Below, piece by piece: positions 7,328 through 58,036 of a stretch of DNA of 64,000 nucleotides (positions are counted from its first letter, which is position 1; each line of letters opens with the position of its first letter). Made by a program: the position numbers and the translations under genes. The notes beneath the pieces were generated by a model. It worked only from the letters and a program-made list of their open reading frames with translations, was not told the DNA's origin and searched no databases. The DNA is from an uncultured Alphaproteobacteria bacterium (GTDB taxonomy: Bacteria; Pseudomonadota; Alphaproteobacteria; CAAHEQ01; UBA3637), in NCBI GenBank assembly GCA_944392795.1, contig CALXXX010000019.1:15916-79915 (forward strand). Reading direction: 5' to 3'.

Positions 7328-8149
7328 ATGTATCCAGGTATTCCGTTTCCAAATTTTGATCCTATTTTATTTCAAATAGGATTTTTTGCTATTCGGTGGT
7401 ATTCACTGGCTTATATTGTTGGTCTTTTGTTGGCATGGTTATTGGTTCGACGGATGAGCCGTTTTACAAATTCGACTTTTACGGTTTTAAAAGTTGATGA
7501 TTTTTTAGTATGGGCAACGATAGGAATCGTGGCCGGCGGACGTTTAGGGTATGTTTTGTTTTATCAATTGCCTTATTTTTGTGAATATCCTTTGCAAATT
7601 TTTGCTTTATGGAAAGGAGGTATGTCATTCCACGGTGGTTTAGTGGGAATGATTATTGCGACATTATGGTTTTGTTGGAAAAAAGACATCAATGTGTTTA
7701 TGGTTGGAGATATGTTAGCTGCGGTGGCGCCGATAGGATTGTTTTTAGGACGATTAGCTAACTTTATTAACGGAGAGTTATGGGGACGAGTGACAACCTC
7801 TGTTCCTTGGGCTATGATATTTCCGGGAGCGGGTGATTTACCCAGACATCCGTCTCAACTATACGAAGCCTTAACAGAAGGGTTATTATTGTTTGTTATT
7901 TTAAATATTGTTTGGTGGAAGTCTGAAAAATATCGAAATCGTTATGGATTTACGTGTGGATTATTCTTTTTATTATATGGGCTGTTCCGGTTCGGCATAG
8001 AATTCTTCCGTGAACCAGATCCATTCTTAGGTTATTTTGCTGATTATTTGACAATGGGGCAGTTGTTATGTCTTCCTATGATTTTATTTGGTCTGTGGTG
8101 TATTGCTTTTTCATCACCAAAATTTCGCTTTAAAAAGCTGATGGAGTAA
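7328..8149 (+). CDS. lgt: prolipoprotein diacylglyceryl transferase
   Basis: Lgt signature (..I..GFFAIRWYSLAYI.G....W.....GGRLGYV.FY......P..IF..W.GGMSFHGG..G). Confidence 0.9.
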   Translation: MYPGIPFPNFDPILFQIGFFAIRWYSLAYIVGLLLAWLLVRRMSRFTNSTFTVLKVDDFLVWATIGIVAGGRLGYVLFYQLPYFCEYPLQIFALWKGGMSFHGGLVGMIIATLWFCWKKDINVFMVGDMLAAVAPIGLFLGRLANFINGELWGRVTTSVPWAMIFPGAGDLPRHPSQLYEALTEGLLLFVILNIVWWKSEKYRNRYGFTCGLFFLLYGLFRFGIEFFREPDPFLGYFADYLTMGQLLCLPMILFGLWCIAFSSPKFRFKKLME

Positions 8150-8151
8150 AA

Positions 8152-8790
8152 ATGAAAAAGAAAAGTTTATGGGAAGGTTTTGTTCGTTTATTAAACATGC
8201 GTTTAATTGTTCCCTTAAAACGTAGCCCTCATCCGCCGGAGTATACGGCTCGAGGCGTTCTTGTTGGAATGATGTGGGCAATGACGCCATTAGTCGGGAT
8301 ACAAATGACGACAGTTCTTTTAACTTGGATTGCGGCTAAGAAGATCTTTAAATGGCATTTTTCTCTTCCCATTGCAATTGCTTACACTTGGGTGACAAAT
8401 GTTTTTACCATGGGACCCGTCTATTATGTCTTTTATGTAACGGGCAAGGTGATGATGGGGGATTGGGGAAATATTAGCGCTTTTGCTAGCTTCTCTCACA
8501 TTATGCACGAGGCTTTTTCAGATGTTGGCTCTTTTTGGGAAATTACAAAAGCATTATTGATATTTGGGAAAGTTTTGTTACAAGAATGGGGATTAGCAAT
8601 GTCTTTGGGCTGCATTCCCTGGTCTATTTTCTCGGGATGGATTTCATATCGATTGACAATGAAGTGGCTTTTAAAAAGACAAGCCAAAAAAAACAAATCA
8701 GCAGAAAAACGTAAATACTGGCGTGAAAAATTACATTCGGTTGTACATCCGATTTCGGTTCATCAGGAAAAAAAGAATGAAAAAAAGTAA
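8152..8790 (+). CDS. DUF2062 domain membrane protein
   Basis: Pattern typical of DUF2062 (..P..RSPH..A.G.LVGMMWAMTPLVG.QM....). 212 aa. Immediately downstream of lgt. Confidence 0.6.
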   Translation: MKKKSLWEGFVRLLNMRLIVPLKRSPHPPEYTARGVLVGMMWAMTPLVGIQMTTVLLTWIAAKKIFKWHFSLPIAIAYTWVTNVFTMGPVYYVFYVTGKVMMGDWGNISAFASFSHIMHEAFSDVGSFWEITKALLIFGKVLLQEWGLAMSLGCIPWSIFSGWISYRLTMKWLLKRQAKKNKSAEKRKYWREKLHSVVHPISVHQEKKNEKK

Positions 8791-9409
8791 ACTTCTGACA
8801 CAAATTGATTATCTTGGTCATGCCTTTTATGATAAAGACGATTCAAGTAAATTAAAAAATCCTATTCTTTTAAAACAAATACACTCTTTTGAAGTTATTC
8901 GTGTCAAAAAAAACACAGATACTATGCAATCTGCCGATGCGCTGGTGACATGTGTTCCAGGATTAAAATTAACCCTTAGAACAGCAGATTGTGCCCCCGT
9001 TTTGTTGGCGGATAAAAAGCGAGGCGTTATTGGAGCAGCACATGCTGGTTGGAAAGGTGCTTTGAGTGGTGTTTTGGAAACAACGATTTTAGAAATGGTG
9101 CGTTTGGGCGCTTGGCCAAGTAATATTGTAGCCGCTATCGGTCCTTGTATTCATGTCGATAGTTATCCCGTTGATACAGATATGAAACGACTTTTTACAG
9201 AAAATGTTCAACCATTTTTTGTTTCGTATCCGGATGGAACGACACATTTTAATTTACCGGATTATGTTGCTTATCGGTTGCGCCGTGCTGGTGTTCAAAG
9301 TGTTGATTTAATTGATATCGATACTTATACAGACAAGCACTATAATAGTTATCGTCGTTCTCCGTCTGATCCTGCTCGTCAATTCAGTGCTATTTGGATA
9401 AAAGGTTAG
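8777..9409 (+). CDS. pgeF: peptidoglycan editing factor PgeF / YfiH-family laccase-domain protein (DUF152)
   Basis: ..TADCAPVLL.D..RGVIGAAHAGWKG...GV.E.T...M...G conserved YfiH core. Start moved to the internal ATG 8777 to remove a low-complexity N-extension. Confidence 0.8.
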   Translation: MKKSKLLTQIDYLGHAFYDKDDSSKLKNPILLKQIHSFEVIRVKKNTDTMQSADALVTCVPGLKLTLRTADCAPVLLADKKRGVIGAAHAGWKGALSGVLETTILEMVRLGAWPSNIVAAIGPCIHVDSYPVDTDMKRLFTENVQPFFVSYPDGTTHFNLPDYVAYRLRRAGVQSVDLIDIDTYTDKHYNSYRRSPSDPARQFSAIWIKG

Positions 9410-9569
9410 ATATCTTTTTTCTAAAAAGATAGGAAGCCTTATGCTTCCTATCTTATCGAACAATATTTACTTGTTTTTGTTTTATTTTTTTTGAATTTTA
9501 AAAAAATAGCTAAAAATATTGACAAAATAATATTTTTGAGGTAAACTCTTTCTTAAAAAAAAGGAAGGG

Positions 9570-10646
9570 ATGAAGATGGAATTATCAAGTATTGAAAATG
9601 AACTTTTTATGGCGATTGATCGAGGAAATGTTTCAGAGGTTGAGAAATATTTAAAGGCTGGAGCAGATTTAACCGTTGTTAATAATCAGAGAGATAATGT
9701 TTTACATACGTATTTTAAGTCACTTTTAACAGCCCGTAAACCGTTTGAAGTGAAACAAAGTTATTATGAAGCTAACGGAGGGACATCTCGAGAAGTAAGT
9801 GTGCTGAATACGAATTGGCAACGGGAATTAAATCGTCGTCGGTTAATTTTTGATGTGTTGCTTGAGCACGTTCCAGTTGAGTTATTAAATGCTCGAGATA
9901 AGGAAGGTTTTACGCCTCTTTTACGCGCTGTTGAGATGTCTTTTCCTTATGAAGCCAAACGGCTTTACTTTAAAGGTGCTGATTTATCTTTGCGGACATT
10001 AGATTATCATTTTGGTGTTTTGGAAATGGCGACTTATCAAAACGATCTTCCAATGTTGGACTTTTTTTATCAGGAGGTTCAAAAAGCAAAGGCTCAGCAA
10101 AGTTCTTTGTCAGAAGAAACGAAAAATATTCCGCAGTCGTCTTTTTACAGACATCGTAATTTAATGATGGTTGCTTGTATGAAAGGGAATATTGAGGCAT
10201 TAAAATATCTTTATCAGGCAGAGCCAGAGCGTGTAAATGATCAAGATTCCTATGGGGATACAGCAGCACAGGTATGCCTTAGAACAGATGCATACGGTTA
10301 TTGGGTTCGATTGCATGCAGCTTCGTTGGAACCAAAGGTGAGCCGAGGTCAGCTTTTATGCTTGGATTTTTTATTAAGTAAAGGCATTAGAGTAGATCTT
10401 AAAAATTTAGAGGGTCGAACGCTTTTAGACTGCGTTCGTTTCCAACAACTGCCCTGTCAAAGTCGTGTTGAAGAATTGTATAAAGCTCAAACAGGTTATT
10501 TACCAAAAGATGTGAGAGATATTCAGAAAATTCGTCAACAGCAAATAAATCGAGTGGCTGCTTTAAAACAAAATGAGATGGCTATTCAACGTCGTAAAGC
10601 GTATTTAGCTGCTTTGCGGAAAAGAAATCTAGAATATGGTGAATAA
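9570..10646 (+). CDS. ankyrin-repeat-containing protein
   Basis: Several ANK-like modules (LKAGADLTVVNNQRDNVLH; EGFTPLLRAVE; YFKGADLSL; LLSKGIRVDLKNLEGRTLLD). No signal peptide. Eukaryote-like repeat fold. Confidence 0.6.
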   Translation: MKMELSSIENELFMAIDRGNVSEVEKYLKAGADLTVVNNQRDNVLHTYFKSLLTARKPFEVKQSYYEANGGTSREVSVLNTNWQRELNRRRLIFDVLLEHVPVELLNARDKEGFTPLLRAVEMSFPYEAKRLYFKGADLSLRTLDYHFGVLEMATYQNDLPMLDFFYQEVQKAKAQQSSLSEETKNIPQSSFYRHRNLMMVACMKGNIEALKYLYQAEPERVNDQDSYGDTAAQVCLRTDAYGYWVRLHAASLEPKVSRGQLLCLDFLLSKGIRVDLKNLEGRTLLDCVRFQQLPCQSRVEELYKAQTGYLPKDVRDIQKIRQQQINRVAALKQNEMAIQRRKAYLAALRKRNLEYGE

Positions 10647-15007: not shown

Positions 15008-16336
15008 TCAAATAGTTTCTCCGGATAAGCTACTGGCAGTGGCAGCAGAAATATGTAATGTGACAATATCTCCCAGCCTGTCTTCCGGCAAAGAGACATG
15101 TACATTCTGAAGATAAGGGCTATAACCGTTGAGTTGCCCTTTTTGTTTGCCGCGTTCTGTAAGCAGAACAGGCAAATTTTTGCCGACAAAAGTTTGATTA
15201 TAGCTTTTTTGTAATTCCAAAAGTTTTGCTTGTAAAATTGAGAGGCGTTCTGTTTTAATAGCCTCTGGAACTTGATTTTTCATGAGACTAGCAGGAGTTC
15301 CGGGTCTTGGAGAATATTTAAAAGAATAACTTTGAGCATAGCGAACTTTATCTACCACAGCCAATGTTTGTTCAAAATCTGAATCGGTTTCGCCCGGGAA
15401 ACCAACGATAAAATCGGAAGAAATCGCGATATCCGGTCTGGCCTTACGTAATTTTTCAACGACTTCGAGATATTGCGCGACACAATAGCGACGGTTCATC
15501 TCTTTGAGGACTTTATCACTTCCGGCTTGAATAGGTAGGTGAATATAAGGCATTAACTTTGGAATATCTCGATGAGCCGCAATCATTTCATCCGTAATAT
15601 CGACTGGATAACTGGTTGTATAACGAATGCGTAAAAGGCCATCCATCTCAGCCAAACGTTCAATGAGTTGAGCTAAATGCCAAGTCTTACCATCAAGGCC
15701 TTCGCCATGCCAGCAGTCCACATTTTGTCCAAGCAGCATAATTTCTTTAGCTCCCGTATCAACTAATGCTCGTGCTTCGTTTAAGACAGCTTCAGCAGAG
15801 CGAGAGTACTCGCACCCTCGCGTATAGGGAACGACACAGTAAGAGCAAAAATTATCACATCCTTCTTGAATAGCTAAGAACGCCGTGCATCCATGAGAAG
15901 TTGGTTGAGCTAAAGCGTCAAATTTTTCAATACTGGTAAATTCGGCGATAGTTTTACGACCATTTTTACGATTGAATTGTGTGATAAGCTCTGGCAATTT
16001 ATGATATGACTGAGGTCCAACGGCAATATCGACACTATGTGCTTTTTTTAAAAAAGCGTCCCCCAAAGCTTGTACGACACATCCGGCGACTGCAATCAAT
16101 GTTTCTTGACCTTTCTTTTTGCGTTCTTGTTTGATTTCCTGAAAGCGTCCAAGGCAAGAAAATACTTTATCAGCTGCCTTTTCTCGAATATAACATGTGT
16201 TGACCATCAACAAATCTGCTTCTTCAGGTTTTTGAGTTTCTTCATAGCCTAGGATGGCTAACGCATCCAGTATTCGTGTACTGTCGTAGACATTCATTTG
16301 ACAGCCCATGGTATTCATAAAAACTTTTTTAGTCAT
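15008..16336 (-). CDS. miaB: tRNA-2-methylthio-N6-dimethylallyladenosine synthase
   Basis: MTTase N-terminal Cys triad. Radical-SAM motif CDNFCSYCVVPYTRG. C-terminal TRAM domain. Confidence 0.92.
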   Translation of the reverse strand: MTKKVFMNTMGCQMNVYDSTRILDALAILGYEETQKPEEADLLMVNTCYIREKAADKVFSCLGRFQEIKQERKKKGQETLIAVAGCVVQALGDAFLKKAHSVDIAVGPQSYHKLPELITQFNRKNGRKTIAEFTSIEKFDALAQPTSHGCTAFLAIQEGCDNFCSYCVVPYTRGCEYSRSAEAVLNEARALVDTGAKEIMLLGQNVDCWHGEGLDGKTWHLAQLIERLAEMDGLLRIRYTTSYPVDITDEMIAAHRDIPKLMPYIHLPIQAGSDKVLKEMNRRYCVAQYLEVVEKLRKARPDIAISSDFIVGFPGETDSDFEQTLAVVDKVRYAQSYSFKYSPRPGTPASLMKNQVPEAIKTERLSILQAKLLELQKSYNQTFVGKNLPVLLTERGKQKGQLNGYSPYLQNVHVSLPEDRLGDIVTLHISAATASSLSGETI

Positions 16337-17078
16337 TCGTTTGTCCTTCGCCTGTTATGCGTTGTTTAAGTTTGCTGACTTCCAGCAATCGACGAGCGGG
16401 ATCCGGTTTTCGTCCACGAGGATAAAGTGTATCTGAAAAAGAAGCAAATTCTTTTTCGGAAAGGACATTTTTAGCCGTTTGTAGCAGTTTATCTTCTTTC
16501 CAGGCAGAGGCTTGTCGTATGGCTTGTTCTCGGGCAGACTTACCATATCGACTTTCTAATGTTGGTAAAAGGCGAACGGCTTCTGGGTCTTGTGTTGCGC
16601 CGGCGGGATAGAACCATTTATTATCGGCTTTTTCAGCGGCTAACAACATCCAAGCATAAGCAGACATTTCTCTTTTCTGAGGAGGTAAAACAGTATCAGT
16701 ATTTTGCGCTTTTAAATCTTGAATTTTATCTTCATATTCTTTTAAAGCGTTTTGTCCTGGCGCTCCCATGCGTTCTACTTCCATCATTAATTGAGCTAAT
16801 GCTCGTTGAGCAGAGGCTAAGCCATTTTCAGCGGCAAAACGATAGTAAAAGAGAGCCAGCATAATATTCTGTTGTGTTCCTGTCCCCGTTTGATACATTT
16901 TCCCCAAAGCGTATTGAGCATGTGGATCATTTTGTTCTTTTGCACAGTTTTCGTAAACTTGGCGAGCTTGTTTATGATGTCCGCGCTTTAAATAAGCATC
17001 TCCGAATAAACAAGCAGCATTTGCCGTTAAAGACAATATTGTAAAAGTTGAAAGGAATAACAGAAATCTTCTTTTCAT
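16329..17078 (-). CDS. Sel1/TPR-like repeat protein with signal peptide
   Basis: Sec signal. Sel1-like motifs (AQYALGKMYQTGTGTQQN...A..YYRFAAENG.ASAQRAL). Confidence 0.6.
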   Translation of the reverse strand: MKRRFLLFLSTFTILSLTANAACLFGDAYLKRGHHKQARQVYENCAKEQNDPHAQYALGKMYQTGTGTQQNIMLALFYYRFAAENGLASAQRALAQLMMEVERMGAPGQNALKEYEDKIQDLKAQNTDTVLPPQKREMSAYAWMLLAAEKADNKWFYPAGATQDPEAVRLLPTLESRYGKSAREQAIRQASAWKEDKLLQTAKNVLSEKEFASFSDTLYPRGRKPDPARRLLEVSKLKQRITGEGQTND

Positions 17079-17878
17079 GATGACTCAGCCTTTTTAAAGG
17101 TAATATCAATTCGACGTGTTTGTAAACTCATGGGTTTTATTTTGGTTTCGAAAGGCAAGACTTCTCCGGGGGAAACGATTTCTTTTACAGGAGCAAGAGT
17201 TTGTTCTCCTGTTTTTTCCCCGGTGCTGTTTGTTAGGATTAGATGGATAAAGGGCATTTTTCTATCTGTATCAGAGGTGTTAACGACGGCTCCTTTAACC
17301 AATAAAGTTGGTACATCATCTTCTTTCATGACGTCGAAAAAAGTGTCTTTAAAATCAAGTCCTGTCCCAACAGGTTCTGTCTGTAATCCGAAACGTTGAT
17401 AAAAAGGCTGAGTAAAGGGAAAACGTCGTGCAATATAAAATCGAGCGGCGATGATCAAAGACAAAAGCATGAGCAATATAAGAAAAAAAATGATCAATTT
17501 TTGACAATAATGATGTTTGGGTGTTGGTTCTTCTATTGGCATAAAAGCATCCGGCATTTCTGATAATGGTTCGGATAATGGATTTTCTGTCAGAAAGGAG
17601 GGTATTTTTTGAGTGAAACAAGGTTTTTGTTCTTCCTCGAGAACGGCGGCAACATCTTTTCGTTCATTTTCGTCTAATTGATCGGGCGTTACAGAAGATG
17701 TGGCAGGTTTTAAATTTTCTGCCAGAGCCGTTTGTGTCATATCTGGTTCTTCATCGGATTGTGTTGTTTGCTCAAAAGTATAATTACAGGCTTTGCAGTG
17801 AAAAACCTGTTTCCCCGGCTTGATTTTATCAGCTGGGACATCATAAATACGATGGCAATTTGGACACATTGTGAACAT
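17075..17878 (-). CDS. zinc-ribbon (MJ0042-type) / DUF3426 membrane protein
   Basis: N-terminal CPNCH..(x)..CKACN zinc ribbon. Central acidic/Pro-rich linker. One TM helix and a C-terminal DUF3426-like domain. Conserved position upstream of ftsE. Confidence 0.6.
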   Translation of the reverse strand: MFTMCPNCHRIYDVPADKIKPGKQVFHCKACNYTFEQTTQSDEEPDMTQTALAENLKPATSSVTPDQLDENERKDVAAVLEEEQKPCFTQKIPSFLTENPLSEPLSEMPDAFMPIEEPTPKHHYCQKLIIFFLILLMLLSLIIAARFYIARRFPFTQPFYQRFGLQTEPVGTGLDFKDTFFDVMKEDDVPTLLVKGAVVNTSDTDRKMPFIHLILTNSTGEKTGEQTLAPVKEIVSPGEVLPFETKIKPMSLQTRRIDITFKKAESS

Positions 17879-24361: not shown

Positions 24362-24951
24362 TGACAAAACAGCTGATTTTTGCTTCTCGGAACGCGGGTA
24401 AGATTAAAGAAATTCGTTCTTTGTTGAAGCCGTTAGGTGTTGAAGTTCTATCGGCAATTGAAGCCGACTTACCAGAGGTTGAAGAAACAGGAGAAACTTT
24501 TGCAGAAAATGCCTCATTAAAAGCATCTTCTGCCGCTTTATCAGCAGGCCTTCCGGCATTAGCGGATGATTCTGGATTATGTATTCATGCTTTAAAAAAT
24601 GCGCCTGGTGTTCAAACAGCTAGATATGCACAGAAATGTGGAGGCTATGATTCAGCTTTTGCGGATATTTTAAAAAAGTTGGAGGGTAAGTCTGATTGGA
24701 CAGCTCATTTTTCTTGTGCTATTGCCTTAGCGTTTCCGAATGGAACGATAAAGACTTATGAAGGAAAATGTGAAGGGCGTATTGTTCAACCCAAAGGGAT
24801 AGACGGTTTTGGATTCGATCCGATTTTTGAGCCGAAAGGATATACGCAAACTTTTGCTGAATTACCGGAAGAGGTTAAAAACCAAATTTCTCATCGTGGT
24901 CGTGCGATGAGAGCCTTTTTGGCTGATTTTGAAAATCTTATTGAAATGTGA
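24361..24951 (+). CDS. rdgB: non-canonical purine NTP pyrophosphatase (dITP/XTP diphosphatase)
   Basis: Ham1 family motifs (FASRNAGKIKE; DDSGLC; GFGFDPIFEP). Conserved rph-rdgB adjacency. Confidence 0.9.
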   Translation: MTKQLIFASRNAGKIKEIRSLLKPLGVEVLSAIEADLPEVEETGETFAENASLKASSAALSAGLPALADDSGLCIHALKNAPGVQTARYAQKCGGYDSAFADILKKLEGKSDWTAHFSCAIALAFPNGTIKTYEGKCEGRIVQPKGIDGFGFDPIFEPKGYTQTFAELPEEVKNQISHRGRAMRAFLADFENLIEM

Positions 24952-25405
24952 TGGTTAAGGTTTTGTTTTCCCCGCTGGACGTGCAATTACCACTTCCAGT
25001 TCCACAAGTGACGCTTGTTGCATAAGGCCAATCACGCGCAGTCAAAAGGGTGCACTCATCGGCTGGTATTTCAGACGCACTGACAGTTAAAGAGTCTGGG
25101 GTGCTGCTGAGACAATAAGAACCATCAAAAGGATTTGCGTTCGGAACATTATCAGTACATCCTTCTGGGAAAATATCATTTTCGCAAAGTTGTTTTAAGT
25201 TGATGGCGGGATAAGAGCGTCTCCAAGAATAAAGTTTAGCGGTTTCGTCACCTATATAAGAAATGGAATCATGTAACTGACTGCTTTTAAGTTTCAAACG
25301 AGCTTGTCCGAAGCCGGCTAAAGCGCCAATAGAAATAATACCGATAATCATTAAAACGGCCAGCATTTCAATCATGCTTCGTCCATATTGTGTCGCTTGT
25401 GTCAT
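24938..25405 (-). CDS. pilin-like protein with prepilin-type N-terminal cleavage/methylation-like domain (paralog 1)
   Basis: Short leader MTQATQYG, then RSMIEMLAVLMIIGIISIGALAGF (Glu at +5, hydrophobic helix), which is the class-III signal architecture. Strong RBS AAAAGGAGAAAAAAT before ATG 25405. Cys-containing C-terminal globular part. Confidence 0.6.
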   Translation of the reverse strand: MTQATQYGRSMIEMLAVLMIIGIISIGALAGFGQARLKLKSSQLHDSISYIGDETAKLYSWRRSYPAINLKQLCENDIFPEGCTDNVPNANPFDGSYCLSSTPDSLTVSASEIPADECTLLTARDWPYATSVTCGTGSGNCTSSGENKTLTITFQ

Positions 25406-25430
25406 ATTTTTTCTCCTTTTTTTAGTCAGT

Positions 25431-26567
25431 TTAACGCGAAAGCGCTTGAAATACAACTTCTTTTTCAGAAGGGCACCCTAGGTTTAGCCATATTTCTTTA
25501 TAGTATTTAAAAGCCTGGTTTAACTCTTTTTCAGTTGTTTTCCCTTGTCGAAGCATGTCTTCTACCCTAAAGGGGAACTTAGGTTCTTTCCATTTTTGAA
25601 TATCTTGAAAGCTTTTTTGTGTCATGTGACGGCGACAGATGAGTTCTTTTCGCTGAACGGCTTGAGCTCCATAAAGAAAAAGGGCTTTTTGTCTGTTTGG
25701 TTCTTGTAACGCTTTTCTGAGAGCTGTTAAAGCTCGTCGTTCTTTGTTTTGGAGCCATGTCGGTGCGGGACTTTGAGGGATAAAAGCACACAAACGTGCA
25801 ATGATATCCGGTTTGTTTAATAAATTTAATCGTCTTTCTCGTGCAATCACTCGACGTAAAGCTTTAAAATTCCAAGGTCCGCTAATCATTTCTTTTAAAA
25901 CGCCTGTTCGAGCCATATAACGTAAAACGATATCCGCTCGTGGTAAAGCGAAGATTTTCATCATTTCATCATGTAGCCTTTGCAAAGAAAGGATACTTAT
26001 TTTTTTGCGTGCTGTGTGACAAGCGTGTAAGGCTTTTTTATCCGGTTTTCCTTTTCCGAAGCGCCCCCAAAATCTGAAAAAGCGCAAAATACGCAAATAG
26101 TCTTCTTCGATACGTTTTGTTGGTTCACCGATAAAACGAACATGTCCTTTTTTTAAATCTCGCAACCCATGAAAAAAATCTAAAATATCACCAGTCTGAT
26201 TCATATAGAGAGCGTTTATTGTAAAATCTCGACGAGCTGCATCTTCCTTGATTGAAGTGCCAAAGGTAACTTCAGCATGTCGACCATCGGTGTGAATGTC
26301 TTTCCGAAAAGTTGTTAATTCCACATGATGCTTTTTATAAATAACCGTTACGGTTCCAAAAGCTAAACCGGTCGGAACCACACAACAACCGGCAGCTTTT
26401 AACTTTTTAGTCGCTTCCTCGGGTAAAAGAGGGGTTGCCATATCAATATCATTTCCGGAGATATGCAGAATTTTATCTCGAACGGCTCCTCCGACGAAGT
26501 AAACCTGTTCAGCAAGTGTTTCTAAAACTTTTTGTGCGGCTTTATTGTCTAAAAAATTTTTGTTCAT
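25431..26567 (-). CDS. cca: CCA tRNA nucleotidyltransferase (poly(A) polymerase/CCA-adding family)
   Basis: Pol-beta-like NT motif (..YFVGGAVRDKIL.....DIDMAT). Confidence 0.85.
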   Translation of the reverse strand: MNKNFLDNKAAQKVLETLAEQVYFVGGAVRDKILHISGNDIDMATPLLPEEATKKLKAAGCCVVPTGLAFGTVTVIYKKHHVELTTFRKDIHTDGRHAEVTFGTSIKEDAARRDFTINALYMNQTGDILDFFHGLRDLKKGHVRFIGEPTKRIEEDYLRILRFFRFWGRFGKGKPDKKALHACHTARKKISILSLQRLHDEMMKIFALPRADIVLRYMARTGVLKEMISGPWNFKALRRVIARERRLNLLNKPDIIARLCAFIPQSPAPTWLQNKERRALTALRKALQEPNRQKALFLYGAQAVQRKELICRRHMTQKSFQDIQKWKEPKFPFRVEDMLRQGKTTEKELNQAFKYYKEIWLNLGCPSEKEVVFQALSR

Positions 26568-29252: not shown

Positions 29253-29666
29253 TTATTCTGTGTAAGTGAAAGATACTGTAACGTCTTCTTGATTTCCGCA
29301 GATATCTGTACTTCCAGTAAACAGAGCGTCGTTAGCATGGATTGTATGTGTTTTTTCAAGCTTGGGTAAGACGGCTCGACAAACCTTCCATGGAACTTGG
29401 GTTGTCATGGTGAAGCGATAAGGTGTTTCTATTGTGATATTCAGGATGTCTACATCGGATAGCTTATAAGAGCTGCCGGCAGAGAGGCCTCGCCAATCAT
29501 CGCGCAGGACCATTTCTTTTGTCGCATAGCTGACTTCTGAGGCAATATGAATAGCTTGTCCACTGGTTCTTGCTTGAACTAATCCCCATAGGCCGCCGAT
29601 TGACAAAGCTCCCATGATGGCTAGGACAGCTAACATTTCCAGCATTGAACGTCCGAGTTGTGTCAT
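29253..29666 (-). CDS. pilin-like protein with prepilin-type N-terminal domain (paralog 2)
   Basis: Leader MTQLG, then RSMLEMLAVLAIMGALSIGGLWG. The RBS context (AAAGGAGAAAAAATGAC) is nearly identical to that of paralog 1. Confidence 0.6.
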   Translation of the reverse strand: MTQLGRSMLEMLAVLAIMGALSIGGLWGLVQARTSGQAIHIASEVSYATKEMVLRDDWRGLSAGSSYKLSDVDILNITIETPYRFTMTTQVPWKVCRAVLPKLEKTHTIHANDALFTGSTDICGNQEDVTVSFTYTE

Positions 29667-29754
29667 TTTTTCTCCTTTAAAATAAAATAAGATATTTCTA
29701 GGGTTGTTTCAAGAGCAAAGATAATTTTGCAAGAAAAAAGTAATTACTTTGTTA

Positions 29755-37752: not shown

Positions 37753-38121
37753 ATGGAAAAAACAAAATTCGACTTTAAAAAAGAAGCTAAGAAAGTCACT
37801 GATTTTTTAGCTCAGTTTAAGGATGTAAAAGAACCGATTTTAACATCTAAAATCGGCCCTATATTAAAAGCGCACATTGCAGTTGTTTACATGATTGGTT
37901 TAATCGTGTTAGCAATTTATGCTTTGGTTGCTTTATTTAGATTTCCAAATGTTTCTGCGATGTTAGGCGGATTTTTAAGTGTTTTTGTTGCTTTTGTCGT
38001 TTTCAGAATGCTCTGTGAAATTTTGGCGGGAGCTCCAGAAAAAAAATCTGAGCCAAAGGCTTTACCAGCTGTTGTTTCAAAAGCAAAAACAGCTTCTAAA
38101 TCAACGCCTAAGAAAAAATAA
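37753..38121 (+). CDS. small hypothetical membrane protein (2 TM, Lys-rich tail)
   Basis: 122-aa ORF immediately after lysS, followed by a strong terminator. Confidence 0.45.
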   Translation: MEKTKFDFKKEAKKVTDFLAQFKDVKEPILTSKIGPILKAHIAVVYMIGLIVLAIYALVALFRFPNVSAMLGGFLSVFVAFVVFRMLCEILAGAPEKKSEPKALPAVVSKAKTASKSTPKKK

Positions 38122-38144: not shown

Positions 38145-38183
38145 CTCCTGCTCCTGTTAAGAACAGAAGCAGGAGTTTTTTTT
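38145..38183 (+). terminator. intrinsic terminator (CTCCTGCTCCTGTT-aag-AACAGAAGCAGGAG + T8)
   Basis: Long GC-rich stem with a T8 run. Confidence 0.7.
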
Positions 38184-38255: not shown

Positions 38256-39257
38256 ATGAAAAGACGTGATTTTTTAAAATTGACATCTAGCTTTCTTTTT
38301 TTAGGTTTGATAGGCAAAACTTTTGGTATAAAAAGTGCTGTTGCGGCGGCTGGTTCTGCTTCTGCAGAGCAAAAGTTGTCTGATACGGGAAAGGCAACGG
38401 TTTATTTTTCTAGAGACATTAGTCCGAAAAGTCTTGTAAAATTATATGATAAAATCAGTCAAAATATTGGTGGAAAAGTCGCTATTAAATGGCATTCAGG
38501 AGAGCCTCATGGTCCAAACATTATTCCACGTGAGATGGTAAAGGCGCTTCAAGAGCATATTCCTAATAGCACACTTGTAGAAACAAACACGCTTTATGTC
38601 GGAGAACGACAGACAACACAGCAACATAGAGAAACTTTAAAAACAAATGGATGGGATTTTTGTAAAGTGGATATTATGGATGAAGACGGAGCTGTGATGT
38701 TGCCGATTAAAAATGGTAAGCACTTTAAAGAAATGTCTGTTGGAAAACATATGTTGGATTATGATTCAATGGTCGTTTTGACGCATTTTAAGGGCCATGC
38801 GATGGGAGGCTTTGGCGGTTCTATGAAAAACATAGCTATTGGTTGTGCGGATGGTCCTATCGGCAAAAAAATGATACATGAAGCACCGGACGATCATGAT
38901 TATTCAAAATGGCGTTCAGGAGCTCGTTTTATGGAAAATATGGCGGATTCTGCAAAGGCAACGGTTGATTATTTTTCTCCACGCATTGTTTATATCAATG
39001 TTTTGCGCAATATGAGTGTCGATTGTGATTGTGCTGGAGTGGGAGCGGCGCCACCAAAAGCAAGAAATATCGGTATTCTAGCGTCAACTGATTTGTTAGC
39101 TGTTGATAAGGCCTCTATAGATTTAGTTTATCAATTACCAGAAAATGAATTGCATGATTTAAAAGAGCGGATTGAAAGTCGAGAGGGGTTACATCAATTA
39201 ACGGCTATGAAAGAGTTGGGGTTAGGAACTGATGTGTATGAATTAGTCGAAGTCTGA
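38256..39257 (+). CDS. TAT-exported DUF362 domain protein
   Basis: Twin-arginine motif RRDFLKL followed by a hydrophobic region and AxA. The core resembles DUF362 (PF04015-like), with conserved Cys in ..NVLRNMSVDCDCAGVGA. Confidence 0.65.
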   Translation: MKRRDFLKLTSSFLFLGLIGKTFGIKSAVAAAGSASAEQKLSDTGKATVYFSRDISPKSLVKLYDKISQNIGGKVAIKWHSGEPHGPNIIPREMVKALQEHIPNSTLVETNTLYVGERQTTQQHRETLKTNGWDFCKVDIMDEDGAVMLPIKNGKHFKEMSVGKHMLDYDSMVVLTHFKGHAMGGFGGSMKNIAIGCADGPIGKKMIHEAPDDHDYSKWRSGARFMENMADSAKATVDYFSPRIVYINVLRNMSVDCDCAGVGAAPPKARNIGILASTDLLAVDKASIDLVYQLPENELHDLKERIESREGLHQLTAMKELGLGTDVYELVEV

Positions 39258-39285
39258 CATTCTTTATGAGGGAAAGAGAAAAAAG

Positions 39286-39831
39286 ATGAAAAAAATATTT
39301 TTATTTTTAATGGCTTTGTTAACATTAGGTATAACAAAAGGAGAAGCAGAAATGATATCGTCAAAAACACTGATAGCATATTATTCATGGAGCGGTAATA
39401 CACGTGCGGTCGCAGAAGAAATACAAAAGCAGGTAGGTGGAACTTTATTTGAAATTCAAACAAAAACTCCCTATCCTGAGGCATATCAAGCAACAGTTGA
39501 TCAGGCAAAGAAAGAAATTGCCGAAGGCTATCGGCCAGACTTGGTTCAACCTCTTCCAGATATGTCGGGATATGATGTCATTTTTATCGGTAGTCCTAAT
39601 TGGTGGGGAACAATTGCTCCAGCCGTCTCCAGCTTTTTAGCTTCAACAGATTTACAGGGTAAAAAAGTTATTCCGTTTATCACTCATGGAGGGGGATATG
39701 CTCAAAATACTGTTAAAGATTTAACAGCTCAATGTAAAGGATGTCAAGTAGAAGAAGCTTTTATTGGACATGGAACATCTTCACCAAACAAGGAAGATAT
39801 AGAAGAATGGCTAAAGAAAGTTAATTATTAA
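39286..39831 (+). CDS. exported flavodoxin-like protein (Flavodoxin_4-like, with Sec signal peptide)
   Basis: Signal peptide. Flavodoxin motifs (LIAYYSWSGNTRAVAEEI; VIFIGSPNWWG; PFITHGGGY). Confidence 0.7.
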   Translation: MKKIFLFLMALLTLGITKGEAEMISSKTLIAYYSWSGNTRAVAEEIQKQVGGTLFEIQTKTPYPEAYQATVDQAKKEIAEGYRPDLVQPLPDMSGYDVIFIGSPNWWGTIAPAVSSFLASTDLQGKKVIPFITHGGGYAQNTVKDLTAQCKGCQVEEAFIGHGTSSPNKEDIEEWLKKVNY

Positions 39832-39840
39832 AAGCCCTAT

Positions 39841-39871
39841 GAAGCCTATTTTTAAAATAGGCTTCTTTTTT
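39841..39871 (+). terminator. intrinsic terminator after flavodoxin gene
   Basis: GAAGCCTAT-ttttaaa-ATAGGCTTC + T6. Confidence 0.65.
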
Positions 39872-39993
39872 AATGAGAGAAAGGAATATACAGAAATTTA
39901 TTTTTTTATATTCAGAAATACTAATTTTTTACATTGACACATTTAATTTAATATAGATATATAACTTAACCAATCGAGTGAGTGTGTCATAAA

Positions 39994-41166
39994 ATGTCGT
40001 TAATAAGGAAATTATTTTTCAAGTCTTGTTGTGGACGAAGTATGATAGAAATGCTTGGCATGTTGGCGATTGTGTCACTGCTAAGTTTAGGGTCATTTTG
40101 GGGGATAAGACAGCTTCGTATTCATGAAAAGGCAAACGAGCTTGCCTTTACTTGTACTCAAATCAGTCAAGACGTGTTGACTTCTGAGAAGATACAAAAT
40201 CTTCCGGAAGGGAGCTTGATTGAAGAAGTTGATTCAATACAAGTTTTCTCTGTCTCCTCAGATGCTTTTGTATTATCTCTGCCGCCGGTATCTGAGCCAA
40301 TTTGTCGTGTTTTATTGCCCTTATTTCAAAATGATTATCGTGTCTGGATAGAAGATACATTATGGAATGGAAATGAAGCTGCTTGTGTCGGGGAAGCTAT
40401 TCAAATTCAATTAGAAAGAAGTATCTCCGGTATATGGGATGAGCTGGATTCTTGTGAGGCGGGAAAAGTTCCTTTATTCTCTGGAGGGTGCGGATGTCCT
40501 GCAGATAAACCATTGTTAGTTGAGGGAGAATGTTCTGCGTCTTGTCCTCCTGAGCAAAAAGCGGGAAGTAATGGATTATGTTGTGCGGAACTGAATGAAG
40601 AGGGGAAGTGTTGTCAAACATTTTATGATTATGATAAGGCCACGGTCTGTTGCGAAAAAGGGGAAACAGCCTATACAAATGCTTATAACAAAGCTATGTG
40701 TTGTCCGGCCTCTTCAAAATTATCTGAGGTTGGCGTTTCTTGTTGGGGTGAGCAAATAAAAGCGTGTTGTCCCGTTGGTTTTTCTCCGCTGATGAAAAAC
40801 TGTAATCAACCTAAATGTTGTGTAGATGAACATTTCTATGATCTTTCAAAAAATGTTGTCTACTCGATCTGTTGTGCAGATGGATATATTGGGTACTCTC
40901 CTGAGGCTAATAGCTATTGTTGTCCTGTTCATTTAAATTATCATTTAGATATTGTTATCTCAAAAGATGAAGGATGCTGGTATGTTGATTTGAAAACTTG
41001 TTGTCCTGAGGGATATAGTGGCTATCTTTCTGAAACAGATATGAATAATCGATGTTCCCGAGAAAAAAGATGTTGTCCCGTTCAAAATTTGGTAGATGGT
41101 CATTGTTCTGGCGGCGATATTGAGACCTATAGAGGTGCTCCAAACGGTCAAATGATAGATGGTTGA
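39994..41166 (+). CDS. pilin-like protein (paralog 3) fused to a large paired-cysteine (CC-dyad) C-terminal domain
   Basis: Leader ..KSCCG, then RSMIEMLGMLAIVSLLSLGSFWG. A C-terminal region of about 250 aa carries at least 12 CC dyads (CCAELNEEGKCC..VCCEKGE..MCCPASS..ACCPVGF..KCCVDEH..ICCADGY..YCCPVH..TCCPEGY..RCCPVQN). The ORF track starts at GTG 39982; the first ATG is at 39994. Confidence 0.6.
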   Translation: MSLIRKLFFKSCCGRSMIEMLGMLAIVSLLSLGSFWGIRQLRIHEKANELAFTCTQISQDVLTSEKIQNLPEGSLIEEVDSIQVFSVSSDAFVLSLPPVSEPICRVLLPLFQNDYRVWIEDTLWNGNEAACVGEAIQIQLERSISGIWDELDSCEAGKVPLFSGGCGCPADKPLLVEGECSASCPPEQKAGSNGLCCAELNEEGKCCQTFYDYDKATVCCEKGETAYTNAYNKAMCCPASSKLSEVGVSCWGEQIKACCPVGFSPLMKNCNQPKCCVDEHFYDLSKNVVYSICCADGYIGYSPEANSYCCPVHLNYHLDIVISKDEGCWYVDLKTCCPEGYSGYLSETDMNNRCSREKRCCPVQNLVDGHCSGGDIETYRGAPNGQMIDG

Positions 41167-41242
41167 ACAATATCTTTTAAAAAGGCTTGAAAAAAAGATT
41201 GCTTTCTTTTAAAACAACAAGAATATAATTTTATGTTATATT

Positions 41243-42601
41243 TTGGGAGTAAAAGAGTATATGCGTCACCCAAAAGTCTATTTAATCCGGCTCAGCTTTG
41301 CTTTTATTATCGGCGTTTTTTTTCTATTTGCTTTTATGGGGGTCAAACATATAACGCCTTTTTTGAAAGGGCAATTTGGTCCGGCATTGTTGCACTTTAT
41401 TTCTCAGCCAAAACTGATTATTGGTGGAATCGTTTTAGGATGGATATTGATAACGCTTTTGTTCGGTCGGTTTTATTGTAGTTTGTTTTGTCCTCTTGGA
41501 TTAGCACAAGAAATTGAAATGTTGCTTTTTCATCGGACAAAAGGAATAAAGAAAAATAGTTTACTTTTGCGTTGGGCTTTGGCGTTAATATTTTGGGGAA
41601 GCTTTTTAGGAGGGACAACCGCACTTTTACGATTTGTCGAGCCTTATTCTCTTATCGGAAATATCTTGTCGTTTGGAATCGTCGGTTTGTGCATTGTCTC
41701 TTTTATTTTAATTTTAGCTTTGCCGTTTGGGCGCTTTTTTTGCACACATGTGTGTCCTGTCGGGGCTATTTTGGGAGGTTTATCTAAATTTTCGTATTAT
41801 CGACTTCATATCGGTGACAAATGTGTTCATTGCGGGCGATGTGAGCAAAATTGCCCCGCAGGGTGCATGCGCCAGGCAGTATATTCGATTGATAATACGC
41901 GGTGTGTTCGTTGTTTAAAATGTGTGTCGAATTGTCCTGTTGGAGCCATAAGCCTGGCGCATGTAAAAAAAGCGCCCGTTATTTCATCAAAAGAAGCTTT
42001 AAAAGGGGAAGTGTCTTATAAAGCGTTAAATCTAAATCGGCGTCGGTTATTGAAGAGTGCTGGATTAGGTGTTTTATGTGCTGGTGCAATAGCAACAGGA
42101 CGTTGGATTAAACAGACAGCTCGAAGTGTAAAGTTGCGTATTCTACCTCCGGGAGCCGGTTCGGTCGAACGATTTTTAAATCGTTGTACAAACTGTAATG
42201 CTTGTGTTGAAAATTGTCCGCAGGGCATTATTCGAAAGGCAGATCAAGATTTCGCAAGACCCTTTATTGAGTTTGATAAAAGTTTTTGTCGATTTAAGTG
42301 CCATCGTTGTTCAAGTGTTTGTCCGACAGGAGCTTTACGAAAGCTTGCATTATCAGAAAAACAAAAGACACGAATCAGTATCATGAATATTAATAGAGAT
42401 CGCTGTGTCGGTTGCTATGGATGTGTTCAGGCTTGTCCCAAGAAAGCTCTTTCTGTCGTGCGAGGACAACGCGTTCCGGCGTATGATGTTTTGTCTTGTA
42501 TCGGCTGTGGTAAATGTCAGAGTGTTTGCCCGATGGGTGCCATTACGGCAGCAGCGATTCCCGAACAAGTTTTATTGACACAATCTTTGTCGGATAGCTG
42601 A
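41243..42601 (+). CDS. NapH-like / NapG-like fused polyferredoxin (membrane quinol dehydrogenase-type iron-sulfur protein)
   Basis: N-terminal 4-TM domain with two CxxCP motifs (CSLFCPLG; CTHVCPVG) as in NapH/MauN. Two ferredoxin-type CxxCxxCxxxCP sites follow. An internal twin-arginine-like segment (NRRRLLKSAGLGVLCAGAIATG) precedes four more CxxCxxCxxxCP sites, as in the TAT-exported ferredoxin NapG. Confidence 0.7.
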   Translation: MGVKEYMRHPKVYLIRLSFAFIIGVFFLFAFMGVKHITPFLKGQFGPALLHFISQPKLIIGGIVLGWILITLLFGRFYCSLFCPLGLAQEIEMLLFHRTKGIKKNSLLLRWALALIFWGSFLGGTTALLRFVEPYSLIGNILSFGIVGLCIVSFILILALPFGRFFCTHVCPVGAILGGLSKFSYYRLHIGDKCVHCGRCEQNCPAGCMRQAVYSIDNTRCVRCLKCVSNCPVGAISLAHVKKAPVISSKEALKGEVSYKALNLNRRRLLKSAGLGVLCAGAIATGRWIKQTARSVKLRILPPGAGSVERFLNRCTNCNACVENCPQGIIRKADQDFARPFIEFDKSFCRFKCHRCSSVCPTGALRKLALSEKQKTRISIMNINRDRCVGCYGCVQACPKKALSVVRGQRVPAYDVLSCIGCGKCQSVCPMGAITAAAIPEQVLLTQSLSDS

Positions 42602-57132: not shown

Positions 57133-57409
57133 TTAAAAACATATCTTTCCTTGTATCTCGAAATTAACAAAGTTTCAAGTTTTTTTTATAAAAAAGCTCT
57201 TAAAGAGACTTGTACTTCTGTTCAAGATACAGCAAGATAATACTAATTTGAAGATTATTGAAAAAGTTTCTCCCAAAATGACTATATAGAGGATAAAAAA
57301 GCAGCTGTTTTTTTATTTAAAAAAATATTTACAAATCGACTATTATTTTGTTATTCTAACTTAAAGAATATACAAAAGGAGTTTAATATGTCTATTTTAG
57401 CTAAAGTTA

Positions 57410-57421
57410 CCCCCCCCCCCC
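57410..57421 (+). repeat. homopolymeric poly-C tract (12 C), candidate slipped-strand phase-variation switch
   Basis: Twelve consecutive C in an AT-rich genome. The tract sits 22 nt downstream of an ATG (57388) that has a good RBS (AAAAGGAGTTTAAT), and separates that start by +1 from the downstream CC-dyad ORF. Confidence 0.9.
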
Positions 57422-57502
57422 ATATTAATTAATTGTTTTAATTATATAATCCTCTTTTCTATTCTTGCTTTACCTGCTTCTGCTAAAGTTGTTCAAAGAA
57501 AA

Positions 57503-58036
57503 ATGTATATGGTTTGTGAAGAGCATGAAAAAGCCTATTGGAATGGTTCAAAGGGTGTGTGTTGCAATGGTAATGTTTATCAAAAAGCTGAAAATGAGTA
57601 TGCTTGTTGTCCTGTCGGGCAATTTGTCAAAAATATCAGCGGTTCTTCTTACCAAATTTGCTGCGCGGAAGATTATCTGAGTGGATATATTCTTGATGAT
57701 GTCGTTATGTGTTGTTCGAATAATCCGAATGCTGCAGGTCAGGAAAAGCAATGCTGTACGAACGGTGGAGAATGGATTTTAACACAACAAACTGGTTCCT
57801 GTAACTGTAACAATGGAAATGCACCTGCCGAAATTAATATACAAGAAACAATTTATTCTTGTGGCGGACAACAATATTGTGATGTCAATAGCCCTGGTTC
57901 ACAATGGCTGTTATCTGCTGAACTCTGTACATACGGTCCATTATATTTTAAAAGATATGATTGTATACAAGAAGAACAATTAACGAGCTGTGATAATTTT
58001 TCCAGCTATGACTGTTGTGGATATTTTTATCAATAA
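57503..58036 (+). CDS. secreted CC-dyad cysteine-rich protein, paralog of the C-terminal domain of the 39994..41166 pilin-like gene (probably translated from ATG 57388 only when the poly-C tract is 11 or 14 nt)
   Basis: The ORF contains VCCNG..ACCPVGQ..ICCAEDY..MCCSNNP..QCCTNGG..CNC. repeats. The in-frame upstream extension back to the poly-C encodes a signal-peptide-like ILINCFNYIILFSILALPASA. Confidence 0.55.
   Translation: MYMVCEEHEKAYWNGSKGVCCNGNVYQKAENEYACCPVGQFVKNISGSSYQICCAEDYLSGYILDDVVMCCSNNPNAAGQEKQCCTNGGEWILTQQTGSCNCNNGNAPAEINIQETIYSCGGQQYCDVNSPGSQWLLSAELCTYGPLYFKRYDCIQEEQLTSCDNFSSYDCCGYFYQ

Follow-up and report, generated by a model that had tools for sequence, protein, structure and literature searches.

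In a 64,000-nucleotide stretch of DNA from an uncultured Alphaproteobacteria bacterium (contig CALXXX010000019.1, positions 15,916 to 79,915; the window hereafter), we analyzed a gene group between lysS and ftsK that encodes a DUF362 protein, a flavodoxin and a polyferredoxin. The locus reads as a conserved extracytoplasmic module in which a membrane polyferredoxin would exchange electrons with an exported flavodoxin carrying flavin mononucleotide (FMN), and the flavodoxin with an exported DUF362 hydride-transfer enzyme holding the nickel-pincer nucleotide (NPN); we put the chance that this reading is right at about even. Each of the module features is kept in many homologs and is therefore far beyond chance. 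The features that carry the reading are as follows (aa, amino acids; TMD, transmembrane domain; a slash in a sequence marks the cleavage site).

38256..39257, + strand: DUF362 protein, 333 aa, by its PF04015 match
38256..38366, + strand: twin-arginine leader of the DUF362 protein, aa 1-37, MKRRDFLKL...GSASA/EQ
38796..38879, + strand: DUF362 codons H181...K191...H208, putative NPN site, from a weak hhalign alignment to LarA and from conservation
39286..39831, + strand: Flavodoxin_4 protein, 181 aa, non-covalent FMN type (PF12682)
39286..39348, + strand: Sec-type signal peptide of the flavodoxin, aa 1-21 (alternative start Met23 at 39352)
41261..42601, + strand: polytopic polyferredoxin of the dual Sec/Tat type, 446 aa, from its Fer4_5 and Fer4 domains and transmembrane pattern
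42032..42148, + strand: internal twin-arginine motif, TMD5 and basic stretch of the polyferredoxin (LNRRRLLKSAGLGVLCAGAIATGRWIKQTARSVKLRILP), from hydrophobicity, kept in 113 of 120 homologs

The DUF362 protein matched PF04015 with 144.3 bits (cut-off 24), residues 75-289 spanning model positions 1-200 of 200. Its subfamily is widespread, with full-length identities of 67-77% across phyla, at least 597 stretches that match it in species-representative genomes and, in a representative library, 341 cluster representatives at E<=1e-30, some of them domains of 1,000-2,900-aa proteins. The genes are common in gut anaerobes (Akkermansia, Fibrobacter, Sutterella, Phascolarctobacterium and gut Alphaproteobacteria). 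The mature window protein had a pN of 0.06, near the 0.044 of lysS, showing purifying selection and a constraint as strong as that on lysS. A sequence-only reading of this DNA had proposed a twin-arginine leader, and closer inspection confirmed the prediction, with a KRRDFLK motif, a lysine-containing hydrophobic region and an ASA/E cleavage site. An RRxFLK-type motif occurs in 100 of the 120 best homologs, and leaders of the Tat type are the commonest kind on DUF362 proteins in most phyla; the Pfam and TIGR Tat-signal hidden Markov models (HMMs) gave no match at E<0.01 on the window proteins.

That reading had also taken the DUF362 protein for an exported redox protein, which stands, but it overlooked a LarA fold and a linkage to lar genes. 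The AlphaFold2 model, computed from a diverse alignment of 71 sequences, shows a LarA fold; an earlier model from a shallow, ~70%-identical alignment (A1), with a pLDDT of 56, was discarded. The comparators in the LarA superfamily are DUF2088 and the NPN-dependent 2-hydroxyacid racemases and epimerases (PDB 5HUQ, 6C1W, 7S91 and 9EIA). For reference, the sequences of four crystallised LarA proteins were rebuilt from alignments, and their numbering reproduced the published D72, R75, H108, H174, K184 and H200. In LarA, H174 is catalytic, K184 tethers the NPN and H200 is a nickel ligand (PMC7583248). A weak hhalign alignment to a five-sequence LarA profile placed H181, K191 and H208 of the DUF362 protein on these three residues. 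Among 85 mutually divergent representatives, H181, K191 and H208 were conserved in 79, 81 and 85 (93-100%), and the triad was intact in all 18 giant multidomain proteins of that set. These observations suggest that the DUF362 protein is probably an exported, putative nickel-pincer hydride-transfer enzyme. It differs from LarA in its predicted export (by Tat or Sec), in an extra conserved CxC motif and in length, the mature protein of ~290 aa being ~130 aa shorter than LarA (~420 aa). A further difference lies in its partners, a flavodoxin and a membrane-bound polyferredoxin; such a pairing implies a net redox reaction in place of the internal hydride return of racemisation.

We then turned to the genes that surround DUF362, using an unbiased census of 80 DUF362 loci from many phyla. 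Flavodoxin_4 was a neighbour at 29 of the 80 loci, polyferredoxin at 14, tatA/tatC at ~10 and larB/larC/larE likewise at ~10; also recurrent were CMD/cupin proteins (22/80), FMN_red (19/80), MerR regulators (17/80), aldo-keto reductases (AKR; 15/80) and iron-type alcohol dehydrogenases (Fe-ADH; 13/80). The lar-linked loci belong to Alphaproteobacteria, Acidobacteriota, Geobacterales, Verrucomicrobiota and Fibrobacter, and two more were found beyond the census (L090 and L143). Their larB, larC and larE genes exceed the NCBIfam cut-offs and lie within 10 kb of DUF362, mostly contiguous and co-directional. The gene order is mutS, then DUF362-larB-larC-larE in Akkermansia (L046), DUF362-tatA-tatC-larB-larC-larE in F. 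succinogenes (L072), larE-DUF362-larB-larC in Oryzomonas (L020), larE-larB-larC-DUF362 in Holophagaceae (L019) and FMN_red-DUF362-AKR/Fe-S-larC-larE-(MerR)-polyferredoxin-CbiM-larB in an alphaproteobacterial metagenome-assembled genome (MAG; L018). No lar-containing DUF362 locus encodes a LarA, and only one LarA homolog was found across 90 loci; the possibility that these larBCE genes serve a LarA was rejected on this ground. Service to an AKR was likewise rejected for 8 of the 10 lar-linked loci, which have no AKR nearby and, in the four that were checked, housekeeping or unrelated flanks; it was kept as a rival for L018 and L020. In the sister species (L090), a larC1 gene (204 bits, cut-off 90) lies between the DUF362 and flavodoxin genes and an FMN_red gene follows the flavodoxin gene, and two clean indels relative to L090 remove exactly these two genes from the window.

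Several minor features accompany these loci. The larC genes beside DUF362 in gut Alphaproteobacteria (L013, 10987-11727; L090, 5924-6685) are short, LarC1-only versions of 246-253 aa, with no LarC2 CTP-binding domain nearby. The CbiM/PDGLE-type nickel/cobalt uptake component of L018 (16122-17024) lies between the polyferredoxin gene and larB. Tandem DUF362 paralogs adjoin lar genes in a Fibrobacteraceae locus (L063, 11023-11913) and a Verrucomicrobiales locus (L084, 8852-9994), and in the latter the copy closest to the window protein lacks a leader and is apparently cytoplasmic. Giant proteins of 1,000-2,900 aa (P0265, P0286, P0296, P0304, P0321 and others) contain a domain of this DUF362 subfamily with its His/Lys/His triad intact. 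Together with the reported DUF362-CBM9-dockerin fusions (PMC5742341), these giants point to cell-surface or extracellular versions.

Several results weigh against an NPN-dependent DUF362 enzyme. Sequence similarity to LarA is slight: the hhalign match to the LarA profile reached a probability of 2.9% (E 0.015) and was used for register only, not for homology, and a comparison with a single LarA homolog gave a 33-column match at 0.6% probability. The Lar_N model scored 17 bits (cut-off 23.3) and the NPN_racem_MAR model 14.7 against 500, and phmmer and profile hmmsearch comparisons of DUF362 with the PDB sequences returned no LarA and nothing meaningful. LarA residues D72, R75, H108 and K298, as well as its C-terminal substrate-binding domain, fall outside the aligned region. 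No larB, larC or larE, no tatA or tatC and no nickel transporter is encoded within the 64-kb window, and the window lineage has lost the larC1 that L090 retains. In L018 and L020, the AKR/Fe-S protein could be the lar client instead. A census anchored on LarB, comprising 80 metagenome loci, contained one DUF362, six LarA and three AKR-type proteins (two "PolyFd" labels in it were rejected as small unrelated ferredoxins). These low counts indicate that lar genes rarely cluster with any client and that DUF362 is at most one client among several. Finally, DUF362 proteins bear Sec-lipoprotein leaders in 16 of 18 Elusimicrobia loci, and the tightest DUF362-larBCE operon, in Akkermansia (L046), encodes a Sec-type leader; such leaders fit poorly with obligatory loading of the cofactor in the cytoplasm.

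Much of this evidence also feeds an alternative that we regard as unlikely, although it deserves serious weight: the exported redox chain would be real, but the LarA-fold DUF362 would bind another cofactor or metal, such as an organic cofactor or a metal site of one or two ions held by the conserved CxC/His/Asp residues, and the adjacency of lar genes would reflect AKR/Fe-S clients or shared regulation. Consistent with it, AKR/Fe-S genes adjoin the lar genes in L018 and L020, DUF362 turned up at one of the 80 loci anchored on LarB, the window lacks lar genes, and the Sec leaders of Elusimicrobia and Akkermansia imply that the cofactor is gained after export. Databases name the family "uncharacterized Fe-S center protein," and the motif C257-D-C259 is conserved. 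Only two cysteines are conserved among the 85 divergent representatives, however, which are too few for a [4Fe-4S] cluster; such a site is therefore unlikely, and we rejected the database label for this subfamily. Within the family, conservation is highest at the His/Lys/His residues, which align, weakly, to the NPN site of LarA. Eight of the 10 lar-linked loci contain neither AKR nor LarA, and in L020 DUF362 stands amid the lar genes. These points argue for NPN over another cofactor.

The second component of the proposed chain, the flavodoxin, matched PF12682 with 98.6 bits (cut-off 24). Its nearest solved relatives are the Bacteroides-type 4J8P (E 1e-21) and 3KLB (E 1e-19), and its scores for NCBIfam PRK07116 and PRK06934 lie below their cut-offs. 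The N-terminus reads MKKIFLFLMALLTLGITKGEA/EM. Despite a rival start at Met23 (39352), which has a good Shine-Dalgarno sequence (AAGGAG) upstream, the Sec signal peptide claimed earlier was borne out as probable: the 21-residue leader keeps its n-, h- and c-region character in the diverged orthologs L090, L061 and L003, and its pN is below its pS. From this leader, the flavodoxin is probably exported. Among the Flavodoxin_4 proteins beside other DUF362 genes, those of L064, L075, L077 and L081 have Tat-lipoprotein leaders, and those of Elusimicrobia and Negativicutes have leaders of the Sec or lipoprotein kind. Flavodoxin_4 proteins outside the cytosol have been described as a class, some flavinylated by ApbE and often found with DUF4405 cytochromes (mSystems 2024, PMC11334425). 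The window protein resembles this class in that its PF12682 domain bears a predicted export signal in an extracytosolic electron-transfer setting, and a further likeness is a DUF4405 gene beside the Fibrobacter cluster L071. In contrast to the flavinylated members, it has a plain SWSGNT loop with neither the beta1-alpha1 insertion nor the [ST]GA[ST] flavinylation motif, no apbE was seen, and its partners are DUF362 and a polyferredoxin.

The DUF4405 membrane protein of L071 (15101-15802, - strand) lies at a Fibrobacter DUF362-tatAC-larBCE cluster, together with a 478-aa open reading frame (ORF; stop-to-stop, 15818-17254, - strand) that has a C-terminal Flavodoxin_4 domain. These two ORFs may represent an alternative membrane conduit to the polyferredoxin.

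The third component had been described as a 452-aa NapH/NapG-like membrane protein. The architecture held, but the length is likely 446 aa, from ATG 41261 and not TTG 41243; ATG 41261 is also the start chosen by gene callers on identical metagenome contigs (L001). The protein contains two Fer4_5 domains of the NapH type and multiple Fer4 domains. As proposed, its N-terminal half is NapH-like, with four strong transmembrane segments, two cytoplasmic [4Fe-4S] motifs and two further motifs that are Cx3CP (CSLFCP and CTHVCP) and not CxxCP as had been read. The internal twin-arginine segment is likewise present: LNRRRLLKSAGLG is followed by the weakly hydrophobic TMD5, with a Kyte-Doolittle value of 1.16 versus 1.5-2.8 for TMD1-4. 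The order after TMD1-4 is RRRLLK, TMD5, RWIKQTARSVKLR and the four cluster motifs of the NapG-like domain; three of these motifs are canonical CxxCxxCxxxCP, and the fourth, which had been counted with them, is a Cx3CxxCxxxCP variant. In L090, the polyferredoxin is called as two genes, 9259-9840 (193 aa) and 9863-10546 (227 aa), with the break between the NapH-like part and the NapG-like part; a frameshift or an error of assembly may explain it, or the protein may truly be split.

A search at E<=1e-10 found 464 homologs that share the full-length architecture and span Alphaproteobacteria, Lentisphaeria, Kiritimatiellia and Bacteroidales. The signature of twin arginines, TMD5 and basic stretch was present in 113 of the best 120 of the 464, followed by a conserved ILPPGAG. 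A "NapH-NapG fusion" polyferredoxin has been reported to be inserted jointly by Sec and Tat, as validated by reporter fusions (Tooke et al. 2017, eLife, PMC5449189). The window protein resembles that polyferredoxin, MLMS-1 PFD, on several counts (PMC5449189): four NapH-like TMDs with cytoplasmic Fe-S motifs, a twin-arginine pair immediately ahead of a TMD5 of low hydrophobicity, a basic stretch behind it, and a NapG-like domain that is periplasmic and holds four cluster motifs. The likeness is one of architecture and signature, the signature matching exactly, and by these the window protein belongs to the dual Sec/Tat polytopic type. The physiological partners of that class had not been known; in the window and its relatives, the polyferredoxin partners are the exported flavodoxin, DUF362 and Tat AKR/Fe-S proteins. 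The fusion had been thought unusual, which the description of Tooke et al. and the 464 homologs contradict. One homolog adjoins tatA-tatC-Flavodoxin_4 (L003), and others, in Lentisphaeria and Bacteroidales, adjoin AKR/Fe-S fusion proteins, with a Tat leader in the Bacteroidales case. From these neighbours, the family appears to serve exported redox proteins in general as a conduit.

Taken together, the three proteins suggest a mechanism of which four points are inferences: that NPN is present, which way electrons flow, that flavodoxin and DUF362 make contact, and what the substrate is. The polyferredoxin would be inserted by Sec (TMD1-4) and Tat (TMD5), leaving two [4Fe-4S] clusters to face the cytoplasm and four to face the periplasm, and, like NapGH, would move electrons between the quinone pool or the cytoplasm and the periplasm. 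The FMN of the flavodoxin would take single electrons from the Fe-S chain and serve as a converter between one-electron and two-electron transfer. The DUF362 protein would most likely carry NPN tethered to Lys191, with His208 as nickel ligand, the cofactor being loaded in the cytoplasm by LarB, LarC and LarE before export of the folded protein by Tat; such loading agrees with the Tat leader and with the tatAC genes dedicated to it. As an obligate hydride carrier, the bound NPN would trade hydride with FMN on one side and a periplasmic substrate on the other, so that electrons would run from quinol or a cytoplasmic donor through polyferredoxin, flavodoxin FMN and DUF362 NPN to that substrate, or in reverse. 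The chain resembles ferredoxin-FNR-NADP(H); in it, a nicotinamide-like cofactor held by a protein would do the work of NAD(P)H, which in its free form is not expected in the periplasm. The MerR, AKR, alcohol dehydrogenase, aldehyde dehydrogenase and CMD/cupin genes that recur nearby hint at carbonyl or hydroxy compounds as substrates, and gene neighbourhoods in other genomes suggest a compound of the carbonyl, hydroxy-acid or sugar type. The MerR, AKR, alcohol dehydrogenase and CMD/cupin genes also suggest a regulon for carbonyl or electrophile stress. The earlier proposal of a quinol-linked conduit feeding a periplasmic flavoprotein and DUF362 is supported as plausible by the neighbour census, but not as an island for extracellular electron transfer (EET).

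A second kind of exported protein may use the same conduit. AKR-domain proteins, mostly with a C-terminal Fe-S domain, were seen in L097 (4662-5927), L100 (2053-3192), L006 (9433-10941), L004 (9331-10608), L018 (10932-12236) and L020 (7727-8929). Those with Tat leaders in L097 and L100 sit inside larC-larE-larB clusters, and in L004-L007 AKR/Fe-S proteins adjoin polyferredoxin homologs. The AKR fold is an experimentally proven NPN fold (PMC13524815). Several of these AKR-domain proteins carry twin-arginine leaders, and by their placement they are candidates for Tat-exported nickel-pincer AKRs. Their positions in lar clusters and beside polyferredoxins suggest that exported pincer enzymes working on this polyferredoxin may be a general theme. 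The NphT-type NPN AKRs (Nat Chem 2026, PMC13524815) are, as proposed here for DUF362, clients of LarB/C/E other than LarA; they were found by lar adjacency and a His/Lys motif, and their hydride transfer goes beyond racemisation. Unlike DUF362, they are TIM barrels and are described as cytoplasmic. On a wider scale, we propose tentatively, with somewhat more doubt than belief, that this DUF362 subfamily is a very widespread and hitherto unrecognised extracytoplasmic NPN family, forming with flavodoxins, polyferredoxins and the parallel Tat AKR/Fe-S proteins a respiratory-type chain for net hydride redox chemistry, in which NPN tethered to protein would replace NAD(P)H in the periplasm and the substrates would be periplasmic carbonyls, hydroxy acids or sugars.

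Few nickel-pincer enzymes are established so far: racemases and epimerases of the LarA type, AKRs of the NphT type and one ornithine cyclodeaminase; their hydride shuttling is self-contained, and many genomes encode larB/C/E without a known client. LarA-family chemistry was stated to be limited to racemisation and epimerisation in the NphT study, which focused on proteins without LarA homology and mentions neither DUF362, Tat, flavodoxin or Fe-S partners nor the Tat AKR/Fe-S type (PMC13524815). In the literature, including the main text of that study as distinct from its supplementary files, we found no description linking DUF362 (PF04015, COG2006) to NPN; nor did the literature yield one linking nickel-pincer enzymes to the periplasm, Tat or flavodoxin, or any exported nickel-pincer enzyme. 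The components are of known kinds, and what is new is the recognition of the module and the hypothesis that DUF362 uses NPN. If true, it would supply a functional category for a domain so far without one that is common in gut anaerobes, take pincer chemistry into net redox reactions linked to an electron chain in the membrane, and provide the first link of the pincer cofactor to an electron-transport chain and to protein export. The orphan dual Sec/Tat polyferredoxin class would gain a physiological partner, and cell biology a new question: how Tat, and in some lineages seemingly Sec, exports an NPN enzyme. Should NPN play no part, the polyferredoxin, the flavodoxin and DUF362 still make up a conserved periplasmic module open to direct testing.

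The sequence-only reading had suggested a different explanation, which we now consider improbable: an EET island acquired horizontally from Firmicutes or Bacteroidetes, with an unusual NapH-NapG fusion at its core. Exported flavodoxins and NapH-like proteins do act in extracytosolic electron transfer (PMC11334425), and homologs occur in Negativicutes and Bacteroidota. Against this explanation, the module genes have the same GC and third-position GC (GC3) as the flanking lysS and ftsK, and the closest genome matches for DUF362, among the matches listed, are other uncultured Alphaproteobacteria. In L090, the module occupies the same lysS-ftsK site, where the two sequences are collinear and 67-82% identical in nucleotides. 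Metagenome contigs of gut type, and a MAG labelled "uncultured Alphaproteobacteria," have the locus in identical or 95%-identical form (L001, L002 and L010). Because of composition, homolog taxonomy and synteny, recent horizontal acquisition finds no support and was rejected, and with it the claim that the module is foreign. The fusion is a known, widespread class, the flavodoxin lacks a flavinylation motif, and the window contains no multihaem cytochromes, ApbE or other EET hallmarks.

Least probable of all, a very slim chance in our judgement, is an ordinary NapGH-type quinol dehydrogenase serving nitrate reductase or another terminal reductase encoded elsewhere, with DUF362 and a flavodoxin made in the cytoplasm from Met23 as unrelated neighbours: the weak matches to the NapH, NapG and NapF models, the Shine-Dalgarno sequence at Met23 and the terminators between transcription units speak for it, but the scores are far under the curated cut-offs (NapH, 84 and 82 bits versus 213 and 234; NapG, 50 versus 269; NapF, 78 versus 102), napA and napB are missing both from the window and from the immediate neighbourhood of every polyferredoxin homolog examined, the flavodoxin leader is conserved, and DUF362, flavodoxin and polyferredoxin co-occur repeatedly across phyla. 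Orthology to the Nap proteins was rejected on these scores and on the lack of a molybdoenzyme in the window. An ORF survey agreed with the earlier observation that the window has no napA/napB: it encodes no NapA-sized molybdoenzyme, its only ORFs above 700 aa encoding FtsK, an Aas-like protein and a 771-aa protein without a Pfam match. The polyferredoxin resembles NapGH in domain content and in its presumed topology and role as a quinol-linked transmembrane Fe-S conduit, and differs in being a single fused polypeptide without napA, napB or napC.

The four co-directional ORFs between lysS and ftsK were confirmed at the positions originally given. They are probably not one operon; DUF362 and flavodoxin would form a separate two-gene unit, because terminator-like hairpins lie on both sides of the pair. 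The remaining features of the locus are:

38145..38175, strand not given: terminator-like hairpin with a 14-bp stem, from a hairpin scan and the sequence; it parts the unit of lysS and a 122-aa ORF from the module
39841..39865, + strand: terminator-like hairpin 3' of the flavodoxin gene, from a hairpin scan
39994..41166, + strand: pilin-like Cys-rich orphan gene, no family match

The 122-aa ORF (37753-38121, + strand) directly follows lysS, ahead of the terminator, and encodes a membrane protein with a Lys/Ser-rich tail; it has a counterpart of 118 aa in the sister species and a weak similarity to DUF4282. Searches of the 64-kb window with tblastn and phmmer found no larB/C/E, tatA/C, MerR, AKR, FMN_red, CbiM, DUF4405 or LarA.

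The gene embedded between the flavodoxin and polyferredoxin genes had been described as pilin-like with CC dyads. It exists, with 35 Cys and 11 CC dyads, but it does not belong to the module. It has no Pfam or NCBIfam match and only 2 homologs in 5.8 billion proteins, and among the loci compared it is seen only in L010 and L090. As a lineage-restricted orphan it was rejected as a module part, and it is a lineage-specific insertion. Its N-terminus, G/RSMIE(+5)MLGMLAIVSLL, fits the prepilin pattern (leader Gly, Glu at +5 and a hydrophobic helix) and gave no N_methyl HMM match. A GRSM(I/L)EML N-terminus with a hydrophobic helix is common to three ORFs, 24938-25477 (- strand), 29253-29708 (- strand) and 39994-41166 (+ strand), and all three have an unusual Arg at +1 in place of Phe or Met. 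Another Cys-rich ORF, at 57401-58036 (+ strand), comprises 211 aa stop-to-stop with 21 Cys. Ankyrin-repeat proteins are encoded at 9570-10646 (+ strand) of the window and at 7736-9022 (- strand) of L084, beside the Verrucomicrobial DUF362-lar cluster, and offer a hint of a host-associated lifestyle.

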